DNA of 64,000 nucleotides from Saccostrea echinata (lineage: Eukaryota): contig NW_026889771.1 in the NCBI RefSeq assembly GCF_033153115.1, forward strand, positions 8,122,001 through 8,186,000, given 5' to 3'. The translations under genes and the position numbers were made by a program. Within the stretch, counting starts at the first letter, position 1; every line of letters begins with the position of its first letter. Below, piece by piece: positions 19,831-43,863 of the stretch. Under the pieces are notes generated by a model. The model saw nothing but the letters and a program-made list of their open reading frames with translations, made no database searches and was not told the origin of the DNA.

Positions 19831-22800
19831 ATGCTAAGTTTAAACGACTCAAATGTGAGTTATCCAAAAAATCCAATTTAATCTGACTTTAAAAGTTCAT
19901 TTGATATTTAATTCTCTCTATATATATAAATAAACAAATATATAGACAAACATTGAAACATTCTTCATGAAATTATTTGAATAAAAATATATGGTTCAGT
20001 AGAATTCTTTTGATCATAATTTGTTCACATAAAATTGCAGATATTTCTGGTTCAAAGTCTAATTCAAATAATAACAAAGGTTAATTTTGTATCTTCTTGA
20101 AGAAGTTTGAATGGTGGGTGAAAATTCGAAATCCCAAGGATATATTGGAGAAGCATCCCACCTTCTTGCTAGTAGAAGTGTATATGATAATCAATGCCAT
20201 ATTGTGCCTGTGTCATGGTATGTCTTATTATCAAGCATCTTGTAGGTTAAAACTCAGTTACAGCAAATTCCTGGGAACCTGTGAATACTTTGCTATAGCT
20301 GTAATTTGTTTTATATCTATAATAAAGAATTCATTAAGTACATGTACATATAAATTATGAATTCACATTAAACATGTTTTCCTTCAAGTAAAAAGAAATC
20401 AAAGAAATAAAGTTTTTGTGATGAATTAAATTATAAATACATGTACTTAAGAAAAATGTTGTCAATTCAATATTTAAAATTTTGAGATCTTTATAAATTC
20501 GTTATATTAGATTTAAATTTCATTATTTTTAACCTCATGTAGTCTATGAAAAACAGAATCAATTTGCTATATCCCTAAGTTCACTATCTCAGAGTTTGTT
20601 ATAACTGCAATATTTTACAAGAAATTGTTAGGAATTTTGTTGGGGATCTCAAAAAAAAAAAAAAAAAAAAAAAAACATTTGCTATTATTATCATGATTAT
20701 ATCTGTAAATTTGTTCATACTAATCAAGTTTTACTGTGATATAGAAATTCATTACTTTATGTACATGTTCTCAGATATAAAATATATACAAATTAAATGA
20801 AGCTTTATATAAGATTTGATTTTAAAGATCAAACTACAGTACTGTATACAGGGTTATTTTCACCTCGGTGTGTTATTTTTGCCCTCTCACACTTGCAAAT
20901 ACATGAAAATAAAACTCTTACACTTGCAAATACATGAAAATAAAACAGGCGAAAAGAAACTGGGGGGATAAGCCGAGCCATATGCCTACATAACGATCGA
21001 TAAAAAATCAGTTAATTCATTTAAAAAAAAGATTCACTTTTTGTTGAATTAGTGGAATGCTTATAACCATTTAGATACAAATTTGACAAAACCTGAATAC
21101 TGTAACAGCGAAAATGATTCTGATTAACACAAAAAAAATGGCATCACGCTCAATTTTCACAAAAACTGACATAAATTGGATGATATAACTAATTTCTTAA
21201 ATAGAGTGGGTCATCGTATCATTTTTTTGAGAACGATTAATGAAAGGCAATGGAAAGATGTTGCTTTTTACACTTGAAAAATTTGGTATGAAGACCCACT
21301 CTACATAAAAAATTCAGTTAACTTACTTAAATTTTCACTGTGGTCTTAAAAAATTCTAAGTCCAAATACGCTTGCTAAATATAGAGAACTGTATGCTATT
21401 TGAATGGGTATGTATGTGTGACTCCGTGGTATAGTGGTTAGCGAGGAGCTCTTTAAAGGGACGTTTATTGAGGAAAGTGTTCGAGTCATGATTTTTTTTT
21501 ATTTTTTTATTTTTTGGGGAGGGAGTTAATTTTGTTTTACTTTAAAAAAAAAATGTCTGTAGGAATAANNNNNNNNNNNNNNNNNNNNNNNNNNNNNNNN
21601 NNNNNNNNNNNNNNNNNNNNNNNNNNNNNNNNNNNNNNNNNNNNNNNNNNNNNNNNNNNNNNNNNNNNNNNNNNNNNNNNNNNNNNNNNNNNNNNNNNNN
21701 NNNNNNNNNNNNNNNNNNNNNNNNNNNNNNNNNNNNNNNNNNNNNNNNNNNNNNNNNNNNNNNNNTACAGTAAATTATTTAGAATGCCAGATAAAAATTA
21801 TAATTTAGATATTTGAATACTTTTATTCCCGTTTTTATTTATTTTTACTACAAGCGCTTCTAGATCACCACTATCATTATATACAATGTTTACATTTTTA
21901 TAATATATCCACAATAAGTGTTAACACTCAATATGCAGATTAATAAATAGAAGTCTCTACCCATGTTAGACACTTGTGACAGTAAATGAAAGTCAACTGT
22001 TTAGCTTGTTTAGAATATAAATATCATTTTGAGAACTACTGCAAACATAAAAATGCTTAAGTAAATTCGAACAATTGAGAGATTTTTTCCAATAAATGTT
22101 CTTTCATAGTCGAAAAATGGGCATGGGCACATGGCTCGTCTTATTCCCCCAGATTCTTTCCCTGTATACAGTATGTAAATGTTGGTCTTCATGGTTATTA
22201 GCTCTACTGGTCAGAGACCATGGGTATTTGTCCATTTTGGACAGTTCTAGTTGCTTTAGTTGAAGGGTGTTTCCATGGTTACTAAAATAGATATTTCTGT
22301 GAAATTCTTTCAAAATCCTGCTCCATGCTCCTAAATTTTCAGTCTGATTTCAATATAACTTGGTACACAAGTAGACTACACTGAGAAACATAATTCTCTT
22401 AATTGGTTTTTGATTTTGTTGAAGTGTTTCCATGGTTACTAAAATAGAAATTTACATGAAATTCTTTCAAAATGCTACAGTAACGCCTCCTACAGTTTCA
22501 GTCCAATTTCAATATAACTTGGTGCACAAGTAGACTACATTAAGATACATAATTCTCTTTATTGGTTTTTGATTTTGTTGAAGTGTTTCCATGTTACTAA
22601 AAATAGAAATTTCTGGGAAATCTTTCAGAATTTTACTCCTACCACAGTTTTTTGTCCAATTGCAAACTTGACTCAGAAAGAGACTAAACCAAAGACCATT
22701 ATTTTATTTATTGCTGTTGCCATAGTTTCAAGTCCAAGTACTACCTTTCTCTACTTTTGTTCAGTAAAAACCACTTGAGCTACAGTCTCATCAGAGACTT

Positions 22801-25800: not shown

Positions 25801-28134
25801 GTGGGACTTCCAACTCAATTTGACATATCCATGTGTGTTGAGACATTGATGTTTAAGAAATTGATGTTTAACTGTACGTGTATGTACACAAACAACATAG
25901 TGGTTTGCGTGGTGCAGTGGTTAGAGCATTTGCTCTAGAGTCGTGATGTATGGAGTTGATCCTTATGTCGCAGGTTCGAATCCCACTCAGGATGTGAGAC
26001 CGGTGCTTCCGATAAGACTGTATAAAGCAAGGTCCTGTGTCGCAGTAGGTGCTGTCACAAAAAAGATCCCTTACTGCTCAATGGCCCTTAGTTCCCAGTG
26101 TAGGTCTAAAATTGTAGGCCTCCACCGGCAATTGGGGCATCTCCATATGAGTGAAATATTCTCAAGAGGGGCGTTAAACAACAAACAAACAAACAACTTA
26201 TATTCTCTCAACAGGGTTTTTGCCCCCAAATTTGGAGCCCTGATACTGTATATCAAAATATTTTATGTTTATAGTTTATTTTTGCAAGTCAATCTAGCCT
26301 TGCATTTTTTTTAAGGGGCGAGTATTAACTGTTCTATAAATATTTAGACAAAGAGTTTAATTTAGTTTCTCTGTCAAATCAGTACTATCTGTAATTTGAT
26401 CCAGTATCATTTTAAGTTCTTGATTACAAATTAGGATTGTATCTTTGTTTTATGTTGAAATGTATGTAAATTTGTTAAATTACTATTAAAGTAATGTATA
26501 TCTTGTTCTTTCAGATTTTTGAAAGAGGCCCTGGCTTGCTTTCTAGCCGGTACTTTAGGCATGCCTCTTGGAGTAATCCAGTTTTTACCGGTGTATCATC
26601 CTCTCCATGATAGTAACGAGATCCACACAGAGGTTTGTGTCTGGATCCAGATGGCTGTGTACGTCATGATTATGTGGGCTGGCGATCGAAAGGCAGCTGT
26701 CAAAAGGCATGAGCTGCAGGAAAAAGAGAAAAATAAACAGGAGAAGAGTAAGTGCATTGAGAAAAGTTTTACTTTTTAATTAAGTGTATAATTGAGTTGA
26801 CCTGGGTCAGTTATTTTAAGCTTGAAGAGGGTTAGTGACTTCTGTTTAGCACTGTTTTTGAAGCAGAAGAAAAAAATGAAAGCTTTATGAAAATGAAACC
26901 CCAATAAGACAAAACATTTAATGTTTTATCACAGTATTTTCAGTTAAAGGAACAGAAATACATGTATTGTGGTGTAAGATTCACAGCATACTACTAGCTT
27001 GGGCTAGTGGGTTAATCCTCTAGCTTGATCAGTAGAGCACTGGACTGGCATGCCAGAGGTCCTGGGTTCAAATCCATTTGGAGGCACAAACATGTCTTTG
27101 TTAAATTTGGCCCCCACATTGGGACCAGGTATCCTCTGGCGGGTGAAAGTGATTGACCCCAGAACTTCGCCCCACAGAGTGTAAACAGCATAGATCTGAG
27201 AGTCTGATTCTTATTAGATTGCACAAACACGTATCTCTGTTACAGATACTATTTGAATGATATGTGATATTGAAAAACTTCAGTGATCAGATGTACGAAG
27301 CACTTTGTAATGCTACAGGTATAAAATGTAATTTGACAGTTGTGTACACAATACAGTAATCAAATATATGTACATGTACTTACTGTAGATACAAACTTTC
27401 ATTTTCCAGGATCCTACTTTAATGAAGTTATCTTGGCTCTGGTCATCCACTACTCCATGTACATCTTCCTGGTGTTTACAGCCAAGCCAGAGAACCAGGT
27501 TTCGGTTGGCTTGCATGAAACCATTGGTTCATGTCAGGAAACCACCCCTGTATACACTGCCTTTGGTCATGTAAGCTTAACTTTGAATTTCAATATATGT
27601 AAACTAACTTCCATTGAAAATATGTGTACATGTATTTGAAGATAAACTCTGTTGGAGCTGGGAACATGAAAGGAATAATTTTTGACCATAGGATAGATCT
27701 AAAACAGTTTTTACTAAAATGCAAAATACTTTCCTTTCCCTGTGGATAACATTTTCATTGAATTTATTATCAATAAATTTGAGCTCCATGCTTTATAATG
27801 ACCAAATTTCTATATGCAGGTTTTGGAGAAGCATAAATACCTCTGTGTTGACAAGTACGATGAGGCCATTTTTGATTTCCATTGTACAAAGAAGCTACCC
27901 AAACCTGGGCAGAGCTGGTACACCATCTGTGGCACCAAGTTCCCTAACCATGTGGAATATATTGTCATCGTCTGCGGTGCCTGTTTATTTGGTATGGCCT
28001 ACTACTGGCAGCTTCTGGTGTGCTCTGGCTCACAGCCATCTGGTTCAAAATTATCCGGTTCACAATTATCTGGTTCACAATCTTCTGGCTCGCAATCATC
28101 AGGTCAAAAGAAGAAAAAGGTCAAACAGAATTAA
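19831..28134 (+). CDS. Uncharacterised multi-pass membrane protein (about 8-9 TM segments, probably ER-resident; DUF7802-like / distant CruF-like), 8 exons, 437 aa
   Basis: Exons: 19831-19854, 20103-20217, 23310-23477, 23588-23662, 25327-25549, 26515-26747, 27410-27570, 27820-28134. Introns are GT-AG, phases are consistent, and the total is 1314 nt. Motifs include GLTTEMVSYFLPDIDNFWHAQ..GQRLPLYI and LIDIPYDIMGIKLLWWTWHDTDPNIYDRHYWVPWTSYYFH. It ends SGSQ-repeat + KKKKVKQN. The 24-nt first exon (MLSLNDSN) is the least certain part. The family label is from memory, not from a search. Confidence 0.88.
21569..21765. other. Assembly gap
   Basis: Run of N. Confidence 1.
22230..22810. repeat. Diverged ~158-bp tandem repeat (about 3 units), probably Helentron-borne
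   Basis: GTGTTTCCATG(G)TTACTAAAATAGA recurs at ~22267, 22424 and 22583. Confidence 0.65.
23832..24846 (-). mobile_element. Helentron-like element carrying a ~146-bp tandem array (about 5.7 units)
   Basis: A terminal hairpin ATGCCCTGCCATGAATATGGCTGGGGCAT is followed by a CTGTC microsatellite. Marker CAAACTTCAT occurs at 23984, 24130, 24277, 24423, 24568 and 24675. A subterminal inverted repeat GGCGGGGCAT and a CTAGTT end are present. Confidence 0.75.
25113..25289. repeat. Long inverted repeat (~80-bp arms), probable MITE remnant
   Basis: TAAGAAATGAATTTAATTTTTGAGAACTCATGAGGTACATGAACTAC.. pairs with ..GTAGTTCATGTACCTCATGAATTCTTAAAAATTAAATTCATTTCTTA. Confidence 0.85.
25901..26197 (+). mobile_element. 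tRNA-derived SINE with Meta/Deu(Nin)-like central domain and (AAAC)n tail
   Basis: Box A is GTGGTGCAGTGG and box B is GGTTCGAATCC. The central GGTCCTGTGTCGCAGTAGGTG..AAAGATCCCTTACTGCTCAATGGCC resembles the Deu/Nin domain as I recall it. The 3' end is GGGGCGTTAAACAACAAACAAACAAACAAC. Confidence 0.8.
27008..27090 (+). mobile_element. Degenerate tRNA-derived SINE head
   Basis: It has TAGCTTGATCAGTAGAGCAC (box A-like) and GGGTTCAAATCC (box B) but no intact cloverleaf. Confidence 0.5.
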
Positions 28135-28299
28135 AAATTATGTTTAAATTACTTGTAAAACATGTGCTTAACATAAAATGGTAAAGCACATTACCATTCT
28201 TGGTACTTACTCTGTTATGGATAAATTTTTTGGTATGATTCTTGTTTGTTTGTTTGGTTTTTTTTTTTGATTTGCTGCTTGAAAGGTTATGTTTATATT

Positions 28300-28490
28300 A
28301 AATTATTTTATGCATTGAATACTTGCCTTTCCATTTAATCAGCTATATTGAATATAGATGATTTGAATGTTTTGTAAATTCTCATTTTGATTGAATTCCA
28401 GAATAAATAATTGAAATTATTTTTATGCATTGAATATTTGCCTTTCCATTCAATCAGCTGTATTGAATATAGATGAATTTGAATGTTTCA
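28300..28490. repeat. ~75-bp direct duplication (spacing ~114 bp) in the presumed 3' UTR of the membrane-protein gene
   Basis: AAATTATTTTTATGCATTGAATA.TTGCCTTTCCATT.AATCAGCT.TATTGAATATAGATGA occurs twice. Confidence 0.8.
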
Positions 28491-29164
28491 TAAAATAAAT
28501 TTCAGGCAAATATTGTACACACTTTATATGATACATTTACACTATTCATTGAAAAGAAATATTTTTCAGTTGCTTGTTATTTTGAATGGTGTACATAAAG
28601 TGGATTTCAGGCAAAAGATAACAAGCTCTATCATGTCCAGCTTGTAAAACCAACCCCTCAGAACCTTTGAAGTTATTTTTTCATGGTTATAGATTTAATG
28701 TACATGTATGTACATTTTGCAATTTTATCCAAATGTTGTTATCCAAATGTATCCAAATCATGTCTTGGGGAGTTTTTGTATGAGAAAATGGTGTTGTTTT
28801 AAAATCGGCTTAAAACTCTATGAAAGTGAAGTTGCTCTATGTTCACTTATCAATAAGTATGAATAAAAGAAACCTGAGTGATTGTTTAATCTTATTTGAT
28901 AAGTTATATGTGTTTGCAGTAAGTGCAATTTGTATGATGTTTTGAAATATACCCAAAACTGAAATTTTGTCACTACTAGTATGTCCTATTAATAAATTTT
29001 TTGGCATGTCTCAATAATGCATTTATGTTATCTGTGAATCTGTTGACAGACTTCATTGGGTTCAGTGCCACAAGTGTAACAGTTTCTGCTTCTCAATTTC
29101 TATTACAATGTATAACAAAAATTGAAAATAAAATTACATGAAAACTAAGGATGAACAAAGAAGA

Positions 29165-30464
29165 TTAATTAGGCCTCTTCCATGGACAAAAACTCTGATA
29201 CCACCCTTCCTCTGGGAGCCATGATCTAAAGTAACTTGAATCTACACAACCTGAGGATGCTTGGACATTAAGACAAATTATGGCCATGCTGTACTTCAGA
29301 AGATTTAAAGATTTTTTTTCTGTATAATACCATGTAAAACTTTGATCACATACATGTATTGGGCCTCTTCCTGTCCCCAGGGGCCATGATTTGATCATAG
29401 TTGAATCTACACTACCTGAGGATGTTTCCATAGTAATGTGAATAATCATTGCCCTGTGTTCATCATCAGATTTTGAAATATTTTTCCCTATATATTACCA
29501 TTTTGAACCTTTATCTCCTTGATTCTACATCATTTGTGAATGCTTCTATATGAATACAATTACTGTATACAGGGTTATTTTTGCACCATGTTATTTTCGC
29601 CCTTTCACACTTGCAACCAATTTTACACCATTTTAATTTCGTCAAGTCGCATTTCTGTTCTAGAATATATACTGTGTTCTTTGAATTCACCCAGTTTTAA
29701 ATCGCCCACCTGTGAGAAGGGGGAAAGGGGCGAAAATAAAATGGGTGCAAAATTTTCCCTGTATACAGTATTTATTGCTCTGTTGTTCTTCAGAGGAAGA
29801 TTCCAAAAGAATTTTTCCTATATTTTACCATGTTAAATATGCCCTTGCACCAAAGCTGTTCTTTGATATTGTTTATTTCTTCGAGTTGTGAAGGACAATA
29901 AACGTCATAAGATAATGTGTGTAGGCTTTAACATGTCATAGGTACTAACTATGTACAAGAAAGTGGTTGGTTTCCTATCATGGCCTCACCCTACCCTGGA
30001 TGGCAGTGAATTTAAAAACAAACTTGATTCTGGACTACCTGGCAATGCTTCCATATGAATTCACCTAATCATGGCTCTGCTGTTCTTCATGAGATTTTTA
30101 AGGACTTTTTTAAGGACTTTGATCCCCTATCTTGGCTCCACCCTAACCCTGGGGCAATGATTCGAACAAACTTGAATCTACTTGGGAACCTCTCATATAA
30201 GCTTTATCTTTTCTGGTTTAGTGGTTCTTGAGAAGACTTTTAAAAGATGTCACCAATTATGTCTTACTTATCTCCCTTTGAAAGAAAATATAGCTCTTCA
30301 TTTGAACAAACTTGAATCCCCACACACAAGGATGCTTTGTTGCAAATTTGGCTGAAATTGATCCAGTGGTTCTTAAGAAGAAGTTGAAAATGTTTAAAGA
30401 AGGATGGGTGGACAATCTGAAGCCAGAGAAAGCTCACGAGCTGTCAGCTCAGGTGAGCTAAAAA
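29165..30464 (+). mobile_element. Old degenerate Helentron/166-bp satellite element between the convergent 3' ends of the membrane-protein gene and HIF1AN
   Basis: Diverged monomers (AACTTGAATCTACAC..CCTGAGGATG) are present, and the 3' end is AAAGCTCACGAGCTGTCAGCTCAGGTGAGCTAAAA. The left boundary is approximate. Confidence 0.7.
29563..29768. mobile_element. Tc1/mariner-type MITE with TA TSD
   Basis: Ends are TA|CTGTATACAGGGTTATTTTTGCACC ... GGTGCAAAATTTTCCCTGTATACAG|TA. A truncated copy begins at ~20840. Confidence 0.8.

Positions 30465-33055: not shown

Positions 33056-43863
<10,808 letters not shown>

Follow-up and report, generated by a model that had tools for sequence, protein, structure and literature searches.

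Within a 64,000-nucleotide stretch of the genome of the oyster Saccostrea echinata (NCBI RefSeq assembly GCF_033153115.1, contig NW_026889771.1, positions 8,122,001 to 8,186,000; hereafter the window), we characterized a gene whose protein belongs to the Pfam family DUF7802 (PF25085), a known domain of unassigned function, and arrived at a new and testable assignment of this family to sterols. The protein very probably acts on sterols, and it is probably an enzyme of side-chain carbocation chemistry. More tentatively, and somewhat short of an even chance, we propose it as a putative endoplasmic reticulum (ER) fucosterol/24-methylenesterol 24(28)-epoxide lyase that would give desmosterol.

The gene occupies positions 19831..28134 on the + strand, where eight exons joined via seven GT-AG introns leave an open frame of 437 amino acids. 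All seven splice joints are present in assembled contigs of each of the four public runs that were aligned to 14000-30000 (two studies, at most three samples; the RNA nature of the runs is a guess, and their contigs are nonetheless spliced), and a single contig covers 19614-29014 with few differences from the genome. A stretch of N at 21569-21765 falls inside intron 2, outside the coding model. The features of the gene are as follows.

19831..19854, + strand: coding part of exon 1, amino acids 1-8; a transcript contig reaches upstream to about 19614.
20103..20217, + strand: exon 2, amino acids 9-46, with predicted membrane helix 1; DUF7802 match and spliced contigs.
23310..23477, + strand: exon 3, with helix 2 carrying E69 and the hairpin DNFWHAQ..RLP; DUF7802 match.
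23375..23377, + strand: codon of E69, which aligns with the invariant Glu of PF04240.
23588..23662, + strand: exon 4, with helix 3; DUF7802 match and spliced contigs.
25327..25549, + strand: exon 5, with helix 4 carrying D136-x3-D140, WWTWHDTD and VPWTS, and helix 5 carrying H173.
25350..25364, + strand: D136-IPY-D140, the acidic pair, from counted alignment columns.
26515..26747, + strand: exon 6, with helices 6-7; the polar cluster Y229-H230-x2-H233-D234..H239-x-E241 of the animal clade lies at 26594-26632.
27410..27570, + strand: exon 7, with helix 8 and the start of the predicted lumenal Cys domain.
27820..28134, + strand: exon 8, with the Cys domain (C342/C355/C370), helix 9, a Gly-Ser-Gln tail and the stop codon; the contig continues into the 3' untranslated region to about 29014.
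28027..28109, + strand: in-frame low-complexity repeat GSQ[L/S]S of the disordered tail, one unit longer in the orthologue P0002.
28117..28131, + strand: KVKQN, a predicted C-terminal KxKxx di-lysine ER-retrieval signal.

A sequence-only reading of this DNA had described an intron-rich 437-residue gene with seven introns, eight to nine hydrophobic helices, a set of motifs (G-LTT-E69..DNFWH..RLPLYI, D136-IPY-D140, WWTW, YWVPWTSYYFH, a Cys-containing loop, which has four Cys, and KVKQN), an ER-retrieval signal and no bacterial contamination, and our analysis bears out each of these points. The Pfam search that it had proposed as a check returned DUF7802: all seven exons long enough to scan match the family in order, over profile positions 37-422, and because they do, the motifs are more than chance. 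The five PF25085 matches in the oyster genome all fall at this locus, which makes the gene single-copy. Its closest database protein, P0002 of Saccostrea cucullata (93% identity, full length), scores 390.7 bits against the DUF7802 profile (gathering cut-off 27.4) over positions 36-422 of 425 and is thus a full member. Bacterial contamination is ruled out by the spliced contigs and by the tree, in which the gene is placed among bivalves.

An AlphaFold2 model of P0002, built on an 86-row alignment (predicted local distance difference test 91.1, predicted template-modelling score 0.90), contains nine long helices, which we read as membrane-spanning, together with two loops folded as beta-hairpins and a Cys-rich beta domain that precedes the last helix; the tail is disordered. 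By positive-inside counts, the cytosolic side would hold the tail and the basic loops, and the lumenal side the Cys domain, the His cluster and the hairpins; on this topology the conserved residues would share the lumenal side. Of 86 aligned homologues, 71 have lysine at position -3 and 56 a strict KKxx or KxKxx, against an upstream lysine frequency of 0.093, so that a conserved di-lysine on the predicted cytosolic tail points to COPI-type ER retrieval.

One search recovered 320 homologues, and the named rows among the best 120 of these were used for distribution. Among these matches DUF7802 occurs in bivalves, gastropods, a chiton, annelids, nemerteans, a brachiopod, a bryozoan, a sea anemone, insects, springtails, crustaceans, a millipede, chelicerates, nematodes, hemichordates, a tunicate and sharks, and further look-ups extend it to amphioxus, lamprey, amoebae, a fungus, a dinoflagellate and a diplonemid. 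Among proteins of 30-210 amino acids, the best 120 of 123 matches were nothing but DUF7802 fragments. The ESM Atlas gave no usable match outside DUF7802: besides DUF7802 clusters it returned a single unnamed bacterial cluster with a low score. With the distant member P0243 as query, tblastn matched no plasmid. P0105 bears the UniRef name 'glycerophosphocholine acyltransferase 1', which we disregarded, as Pfam finds solely DUF7802 in that protein. Among the papers open to full-text search, none contains the family name, PF25085 or three further accessions.

The first indication of function comes from CruF, the carotenoid hydratase family of PF04240. CruF hydratases are cofactor-free and add water to a terminal carotenoid double bond, and for CrtC, which is unrelated to CruF, a carbocation mechanism has been proposed (both from the available text of PMC6013536). 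Comparing DUF7802 with CruF in HHalign gave a probability of 94.4 and E 8.6e-8 over 140 columns, and a 237-row DUF7802 profile gave a probability of 95.9 with a score of 69.5; among the controls, reversed CruF reached 17.1, 30 column shuffles at most 15.1 and an unrelated membrane oxygenase 12.8. The CruF reference set comprised 30 PF04240 members from Actinomycetota, four of which were scanned and match NCBIfam CruF models below the cut-offs. The homology spans residues ~36-182, the N-terminal five-helix domain, where E69, P96, D136, D140, W149, W151 and P166 align with conserved CruF residues and the motifs E, VP, DxxxD, WxW and VP follow in the same order; a model of a CruF-family protein has the same order of helices and hairpins as the DUF7802 model. 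Single sequences fared less well against PF04240: one of 86 members appeared, at E 0.21, the best of 76 distant members scored 20.3 bits, and DUF7802 members did not reach the Pfam family cut-off of 25 bits; P0243 matched at E 5.5e-4 over profile positions 6-184. P0002 had no match among the NCBIfam CruF models, and PF04240 itself had none in the oyster genome or in five genomes carrying DUF7802. Judged by these profiles, the DUF7802 protein is homologous to CruF, yet not a member of the CruF family.

We then searched 48,161 chains for structural relatives. The DUF7802 model found the Insig homologue MvINS on top (Z score 7.1, root-mean-square deviation 3.2, 137 aligned residues, covering residues 46-194), followed by a next match at Z 4.9; MvINS also headed the list for the CruF-family model (Z 8.4, root-mean-square deviation 3.4, 140 aligned), and Insig itself matched residues 48-191 of the DUF7802 model at Z 4.0. 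Of the structural comparison with Foldseek that the sequence-only reading had put forward, the search against PDB returned no match at E<=0.001, and it is the search of the 48,161 chains that links both models to MvINS. Because the structural Z scores are middling and Foldseek came back empty, our claim of CruF homology rests on sequence profiles. The suggestion of that reading that the protein belongs to the CruF fold survives as homology of the five-helix domain and a shared Insig-like best match, with every score below the CruF cut-offs.

Two groups of sequences lie near the boundary between the families. Methanosarcina acetivorans scores above the cut-off for both PF04240 and PF25085, and an archaeal bridge between the families may exist. 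Four loci (L113-L116) carry a shorter bacterial DUF7802-like subfamily of ~335 amino acids that is without the Cys domain, scores to both DUF7802 and CruF profiles and occurs in genomes without c3, the oxygenase introduced below; at L114 the gene adjoins two HsaA-like steroid-catabolism monooxygenases and a wax-ester synthase.

DUF7802 falls into two main clades, one of animals and Balamuthia, the other of bacteria and many protists. All 85 rows of the A1 alignment have Glu or Asp at position 69, and all 68 bacterial rows have Asp; D140 is kept in 83 of 85 A1 rows and in all 68 bacteria. E/D69, D140, WWTWHDTD and R161 are common to both clades, and the animals and Balamuthia retain in addition D136, H173 and the Y229-H230-H233-D234-H239-E241 cluster. 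The earlier expectation that the acidic residues would be conserved therefore stands for E69 and D140; the first Asp of DxxxD is invariant solely in the animal clade (D136 in 85/85 A1 rows) and is Tyr in 68/68 bacteria. Nine nematode-type sequences (P0241, P0255, P0260, P0264, P0266, P0268, P0269, P0277 and P0301) branch together in an expanded clade from which the conserved acids have disappeared, alongside intact copies.

The bacterial gene neighbourhood speaks for sterols. Scanning bacterial and archaeal genomes gave 82 pattern matches and 71 confirmed loci, mostly in Myxococcota (Enhygromyxa, Plesiocystis, Nannocystaceae, Polyangiaceae) and in Acidimicrobiia, including Candidatus Poriferisodalis, which we take to be a sponge symbiont. 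Locus L021 is titled Enterobacteriaceae, probably in error, its genome having also come up (as G294) in the Myxococcota sample described below. Bacterial DUF7802 homologues are near-obligately paired with c3, a di-iron oxygenase subfamily of FA_hydroxylase: c3 lies upstream and co-oriented in 38/71 loci, ending within ~84 bases of the called DUF7802 start, and 30 of the 33 genomes without an adjacent c3 carry it elsewhere, giving 68/71 overall. As the c3 profile was built from DUF7802 neighbours, adjacent cases match by construction, and the telling observations are the non-adjacent cases and the near-absence elsewhere (1/151 Actinomycetota; 0/26 PF04240-bearing Actinomycetota). Among 251 Myxococcota genomes in an even sample, seven have full-length DUF7802 and nine have c3, with all seven overlapping (Fisher p 3e-12, kinship not corrected); these counts leave out four shorter DUF7802 paralogues and one ERG3-like 142-bit c3 row. 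One of the two c3-only genomes has its c3 at a contig end, and the other is a genuine local exception.

Around the pair, a sterol methyltransferase is found in 11/71 loci, all 11 with c3 as well, and a Rieske-KshA_C oxygenase in 10/71; of three such oxygenases scanned, two also contain an SCP2 sterol-transfer domain. An oxidosqualene-cyclase-like gene (>340 bits, under the model cut-off) occurs in 34 of 50 carriers tested against 26/251 in the background, and a sterol methyltransferase in 15/50, two of them weak; half of the 16 carriers in which no cyclase was found have a methyltransferase. In the remaining eight, whose genomes may be incomplete, neither was found, and five of these have a TetR gene directly upstream of c3, which suggests an inducible response to scavenged sterols. 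Carotenoid genes tell a different story: crtI or crtB occurs in none of the 71 DUF7802 loci (778 kb) versus 7/30 PF04240 loci (107 kb), two of these seven having supplied the query sequences, and crtI had no match in one carrier genome (G003). We rejected the idea that DUF7802 serves core de novo sterol synthesis, given that ~24 of the 26 cyclase-bearing genomes in the 251-genome sample are without DUF7802. Two loci stand out as compact clusters for sterol remodelling: L050 combines two Rieske oxygenases, an ERG3-like desaturase, c3, DUF7802 and a methyltransferase, and L065 a methyltransferase, a gene of the fatty-acid-desaturase family, c3 and DUF7802.

The partner is present in the oyster too, as a predicted c3 orthologue with five colinear exons on contig C1 of its own genome. 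In the c3 tree, bacteria, bivalves and Lingula form one clade (support 99), the sister group of the C5-desaturases. Besides c3, both the oyster and E. salina carry an ERG3/SC5D-like gene of their own, and on this ground c3 was rejected as an ordinary C5-desaturase. The eukaryotic c3 search gave eight candidates and seven matches, the named ones being two bivalves and Lingula, and no solved structure related to c3 was found. The same oxygenase family holds the Tetrahymena C24 de-ethylase Des24p (PMC9485055, PMC8079401) and the squalene epoxidase AltSQE (PMC8172173), according to the accessible text of these papers. DUF7802 is fused to an FA_hydroxylase domain in one dinoflagellate and one diplonemid; that domain is of another subfamily than c3 and is closest (support 87) to an intronless oyster gene, which we presume to resemble cholesterol 25-hydroxylase (CH25H). 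The oyster c3 gene (2.8-5.9 kb of L081; ~2682.8-2687.8 kb of contig C1 of genome G000) is followed by a diverged tandem paralogue with an altered second histidine box.

The known animal pathway that fits an acid catalyst acting after an oxygenase is C24 dealkylation, by which sitosterol is converted to fucosterol, its 24(28)-epoxide, desmosterol (through a microsomal lyase) and, by DHCR24, cholesterol, as outlined in the available text of PMC3124498, which reports it from insects, nematodes, crustaceans, cnidarians and molluscs. DUF7802 is present in all five of these groups. DHCR24 is the sole confirmed enzyme of the route, and those before it have yet to be identified, as far as the accessible parts of bioRxiv 2025.04.14.648839 and PMC11591786 go; our own search of the dealkylation literature, some of it available in part, turned up no named lyase gene. 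The scallop Argopecten irradians dealkylates phytosterols and Pacific oyster larvae turn C28+ sterols into cholesterol (PMC12350143, in part); Argopecten irradians carries DUF7802 (P0043). Molluscs are without sterol methyltransferase according to the text at hand of PMC10692144, so that in oysters the DUF7802-c3 pair cannot feed methylation. Twenty-seven named hexapod genera with DUF7802 are found among the matches listed, and only Anopheles comes from a lineage listed for DHCR24 loss in the preprint text. The Anopheles copy keeps 42 of 65 invariant sites, with D140 changed to Glu and H173 and most of the His cluster lost; the copy of the culicine Uranotaenia keeps 62 of 65, and A1 rows keep 57-66 of 66. 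Copies in a cyst nematode and Anisakis are similarly decayed and may be paralogues.

The end of the sterol side chain is an isoprenoid terminus like that of a carotenoid. For an acid catalyst found with an oxygenase in nearly every case, the simplest substrate is what that oxygenase makes, an epoxide or a tertiary alcohol. For the proposed lyase, the Delta24(28) bond would first be epoxidised, by c3 in molluscs and bacteria and probably by a P450 in insects, and a membrane-buried carboxylic acid (D140 or D136, with E69) would protonate the epoxide to give a C24 cation. The Delta24 alkene would then arise by migration of a hydride from C25 to C24 and release of the C28 fragment, chemistry familiar from the classical insect literature, and DHCR24 would reduce this alkene to cholesterol. 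At its widest, the proposal is that lyase and c3 form an ancient C24-dealkylation module of myxobacteria, sponge symbionts, protists and most invertebrate phyla, retained to sharks, decayed with DHCR24 loss and built on a C-C-breaking enzyme of the CruF/Insig fold; in this full form we consider it possible, if doubtful.

Several observations weigh against the lyase assignment. Intact copies persist in predators with little need for dealkylation, among them sharks (64/66 invariant sites), carnivorous snails and a scorpion. DUF7802 is found in lamprey and in a spider as well. The bacterial proteins are ~30% identical to the animal ones and nested in a mostly protist sister clade, the approximately unbiased test rejecting a grouping of animals with bacteria (p 0.00016). 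Because this sister clade of bacteria and many protists has Tyr in place of D136 and is without H173 and the Y229-E241 cluster, the bacterial context may not transfer exactly: it shows the role of the sister clade, and the exact reaction in animals may differ. The MvINS Z scores of 7.1 and 8.4 fall in a range unremarkable for helical bundles. The insect pattern draws on the best 120 of 320 matches and a single Anopheles sequence. The preprint (bioRxiv 2025.04.14.648839, available in part) cites an older study of P450 cleavage of fucosterol epoxide in Spodoptera, makes the case that conservation of the upstream steps does not extend across the arthropods and gives Tribolium castaneum only two FA-hydroxylase genes, neither described there as c3-like. 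With those two genes, the DUF7802-c3 pair would not be obligate in insects, and another epoxidase would be needed. Finally, E. salina, which carries both DUF7802 and c3, has ether-bound 25-hydroxycholesterol and, in the accessible text of PMC10202945, no homologue of the eukaryotic C25 hydroxylase, and bacterial sterol methyltransferases use desmosterol (PMC10070321, in part). Another reaction would account at least as well for the 25-hydroxycholesterol of E. salina and for the neighbouring methyltransferases; for bacteria, both speak in favour of a C25 hydroxylase acting together with a (de)hydratase.

That reaction, the chief rival, is a sterol side-chain (de)hydratase, which we regard as unlikely though a serious contender. 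Here the oxygenase would set a tertiary hydroxyl group on C25 or C24 and DUF7802 would dehydrate it to a Delta24 or Delta24(28) alkene, or, in reverse, would add water or an alcohol to desmosterol to give 25-hydroxy- or 25-ether sterols; it could even be the elusive first dealkylation step, from sitosterol to fucosterol. Such an enzyme would leave CruF chemistry unchanged and perform the nearest known reaction, and the fused protist domains, grouping as they do with the CH25H-like oyster gene, speak for it. The methyltransferases argue both ways: they accompany c3 in 11 of 11 loci and occur in 8 of the 16 carriers in which no cyclase was found, but 35 of 50 carriers tested have no methyltransferase match, 34 of 50 apparently have their own sterol synthesis, and the absence of the enzyme from molluscs counts against this use in the oyster. 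A plain hydratase, moreover, needs no obligate oxygenase partner.

The structural match to MvINS and the Z of 4.0 for Insig over residues 48-191 raise a second possibility. Insig is a non-catalytic lipid sensor, and a protein like it would bind sterol and activate, anchor or regulate c3 or other ER sterol enzymes, which would suit the near-obligate pairing, and sometimes fusion, with an oxygenase. Invariant membrane acids that match the CruF motif are hard to reconcile with a non-catalytic binder, however, and insects retain the gene with all these residues, apparently without c3; we consider this reading improbable.

Slightly less probable again is a sterol ring isomerase that would partner a ring desaturase and either shift a double bond (Delta8/Delta7/Delta8(14)) or open a cyclopropane ring. 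The sister relation of c3 to C5-desaturases and the frequent Rieske neighbours would suit it, as would a weak EBP match in one of 76 distant homologues (E 0.0075) and the NCBI tag 'EXPERA domain-containing' on two Balamuthia members. EXPERA/EBP (PF05241) gave no row in the best 25 of 39 families of the A1 scan, and the best 50 structural rows hold no EBP chain. The separate ERG3/SC5D-like genes of E. salina and oyster speak against a ring partner, as does the rarity of DUF7802 among cyclase-bearing Myxococcota. The E. salina pathway figure, in the available text of PMC10202945, shows just C-4 demethylation and C-25 hydroxylation without eukaryotic homologues.

The carotenoid hydratase of dietary carotenoids in bivalves that the sequence-only reading had favoured is very improbable despite the real CruF homology and the P0243 match, given no crt gene at any DUF7802 locus or crtI in G003, sterol genes in their place, no c3 in PF04240-bearing Actinomycetota, no NCBIfam CruF match for P0002 and a gene kept far beyond bivalves, so that of its wording what still stands is 'other isoprenoid lipids in the ER'.

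Elsewhere in the window, exons of a DUF2046/H4 coiled-coil gene, presumably CCDC6-like, lie upstream at 7265-13344 on the - strand, oriented away from the DUF7802 gene, and at 56023-56838 (+ strand) a 271-codon Ser/Arg-rich frame without a Pfam match probably belongs to a different gene as one large exon. Units of 146-166 bp are arrayed in tandem at 23947-24802, 22251-22631, 38411-39533 and 40946-42307, with two of the arrays within introns of the DUF7802 gene; the arrays inside the aligned stretch have very high contig depth, as in high-copy repeats. Intronic tRNA-like stretches that look like short interspersed elements occur at ~21420-21480, 25900-26190 and 27000-27080, where ARAGORN called no tRNA.

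Many plant- and alga-eating invertebrates make cholesterol by stripping the C24 alkyl group from dietary sterols, and a candidate ER protein with a named oxygenase partner is now proposed for this step. A 2025 review of molluscs calls for the remaining dealkylation enzymes (PMC12350143, in part), and the pathway has been proposed as a target for pest control (PMC3124498, in part). If the lyase assignment is true, it would fill a decades-old gap in the nutrition and hormone supply of insects, nematodes and shellfish; if the (de)hydratase is, the pair would explain the 25-hydroxysterols of cholesterol-making myxobacteria or the preparation of sterols for methylation in sponge symbionts. Under either, the CruF/Insig fold would extend to animal sterol enzymology.

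Compared with known systems, the oyster protein is a full member of Pfam DUF7802, a family with no assigned function of its own. To CruF/Caroten_synth (PF04240; TIGR03460, NF045693, NF041333) it is linked by a homologous core over 133-140 columns, with Glu in helix 2, the hairpin Pro, DxxxD, WxW and VP. It differs in its roughly four additional helices, its lumenal domain rich in Cys and its ER signal, in replacing the Asp-Pro and Asn of CruF by Asp-Ile and Ser, and in its genomic context, which is one of sterol rather than carotenoid genes. With Insig and MvINS (PDB 4xu4, 6m49) it shares 12% identity and a middling Z, and unlike them it has the CruF-type acids. The fucosterol 24(28)-epoxide lyase of insects and nematodes is an activity without a gene, microsomal and giving desmosterol, for which sequence comparison is impossible; sharks, lamprey and arachnids carry DUF7802 as well. 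Tetrahymena Des24p belongs to the same short-spaced FA-hydroxylase family as c3 and would be a counterpart of the partner rather than of the DUF7802 gene. It works with C5, Rieske C7 and C22 desaturases (PMC9485055, in part), a set that resembles the bacterial clusters L050 and L065.

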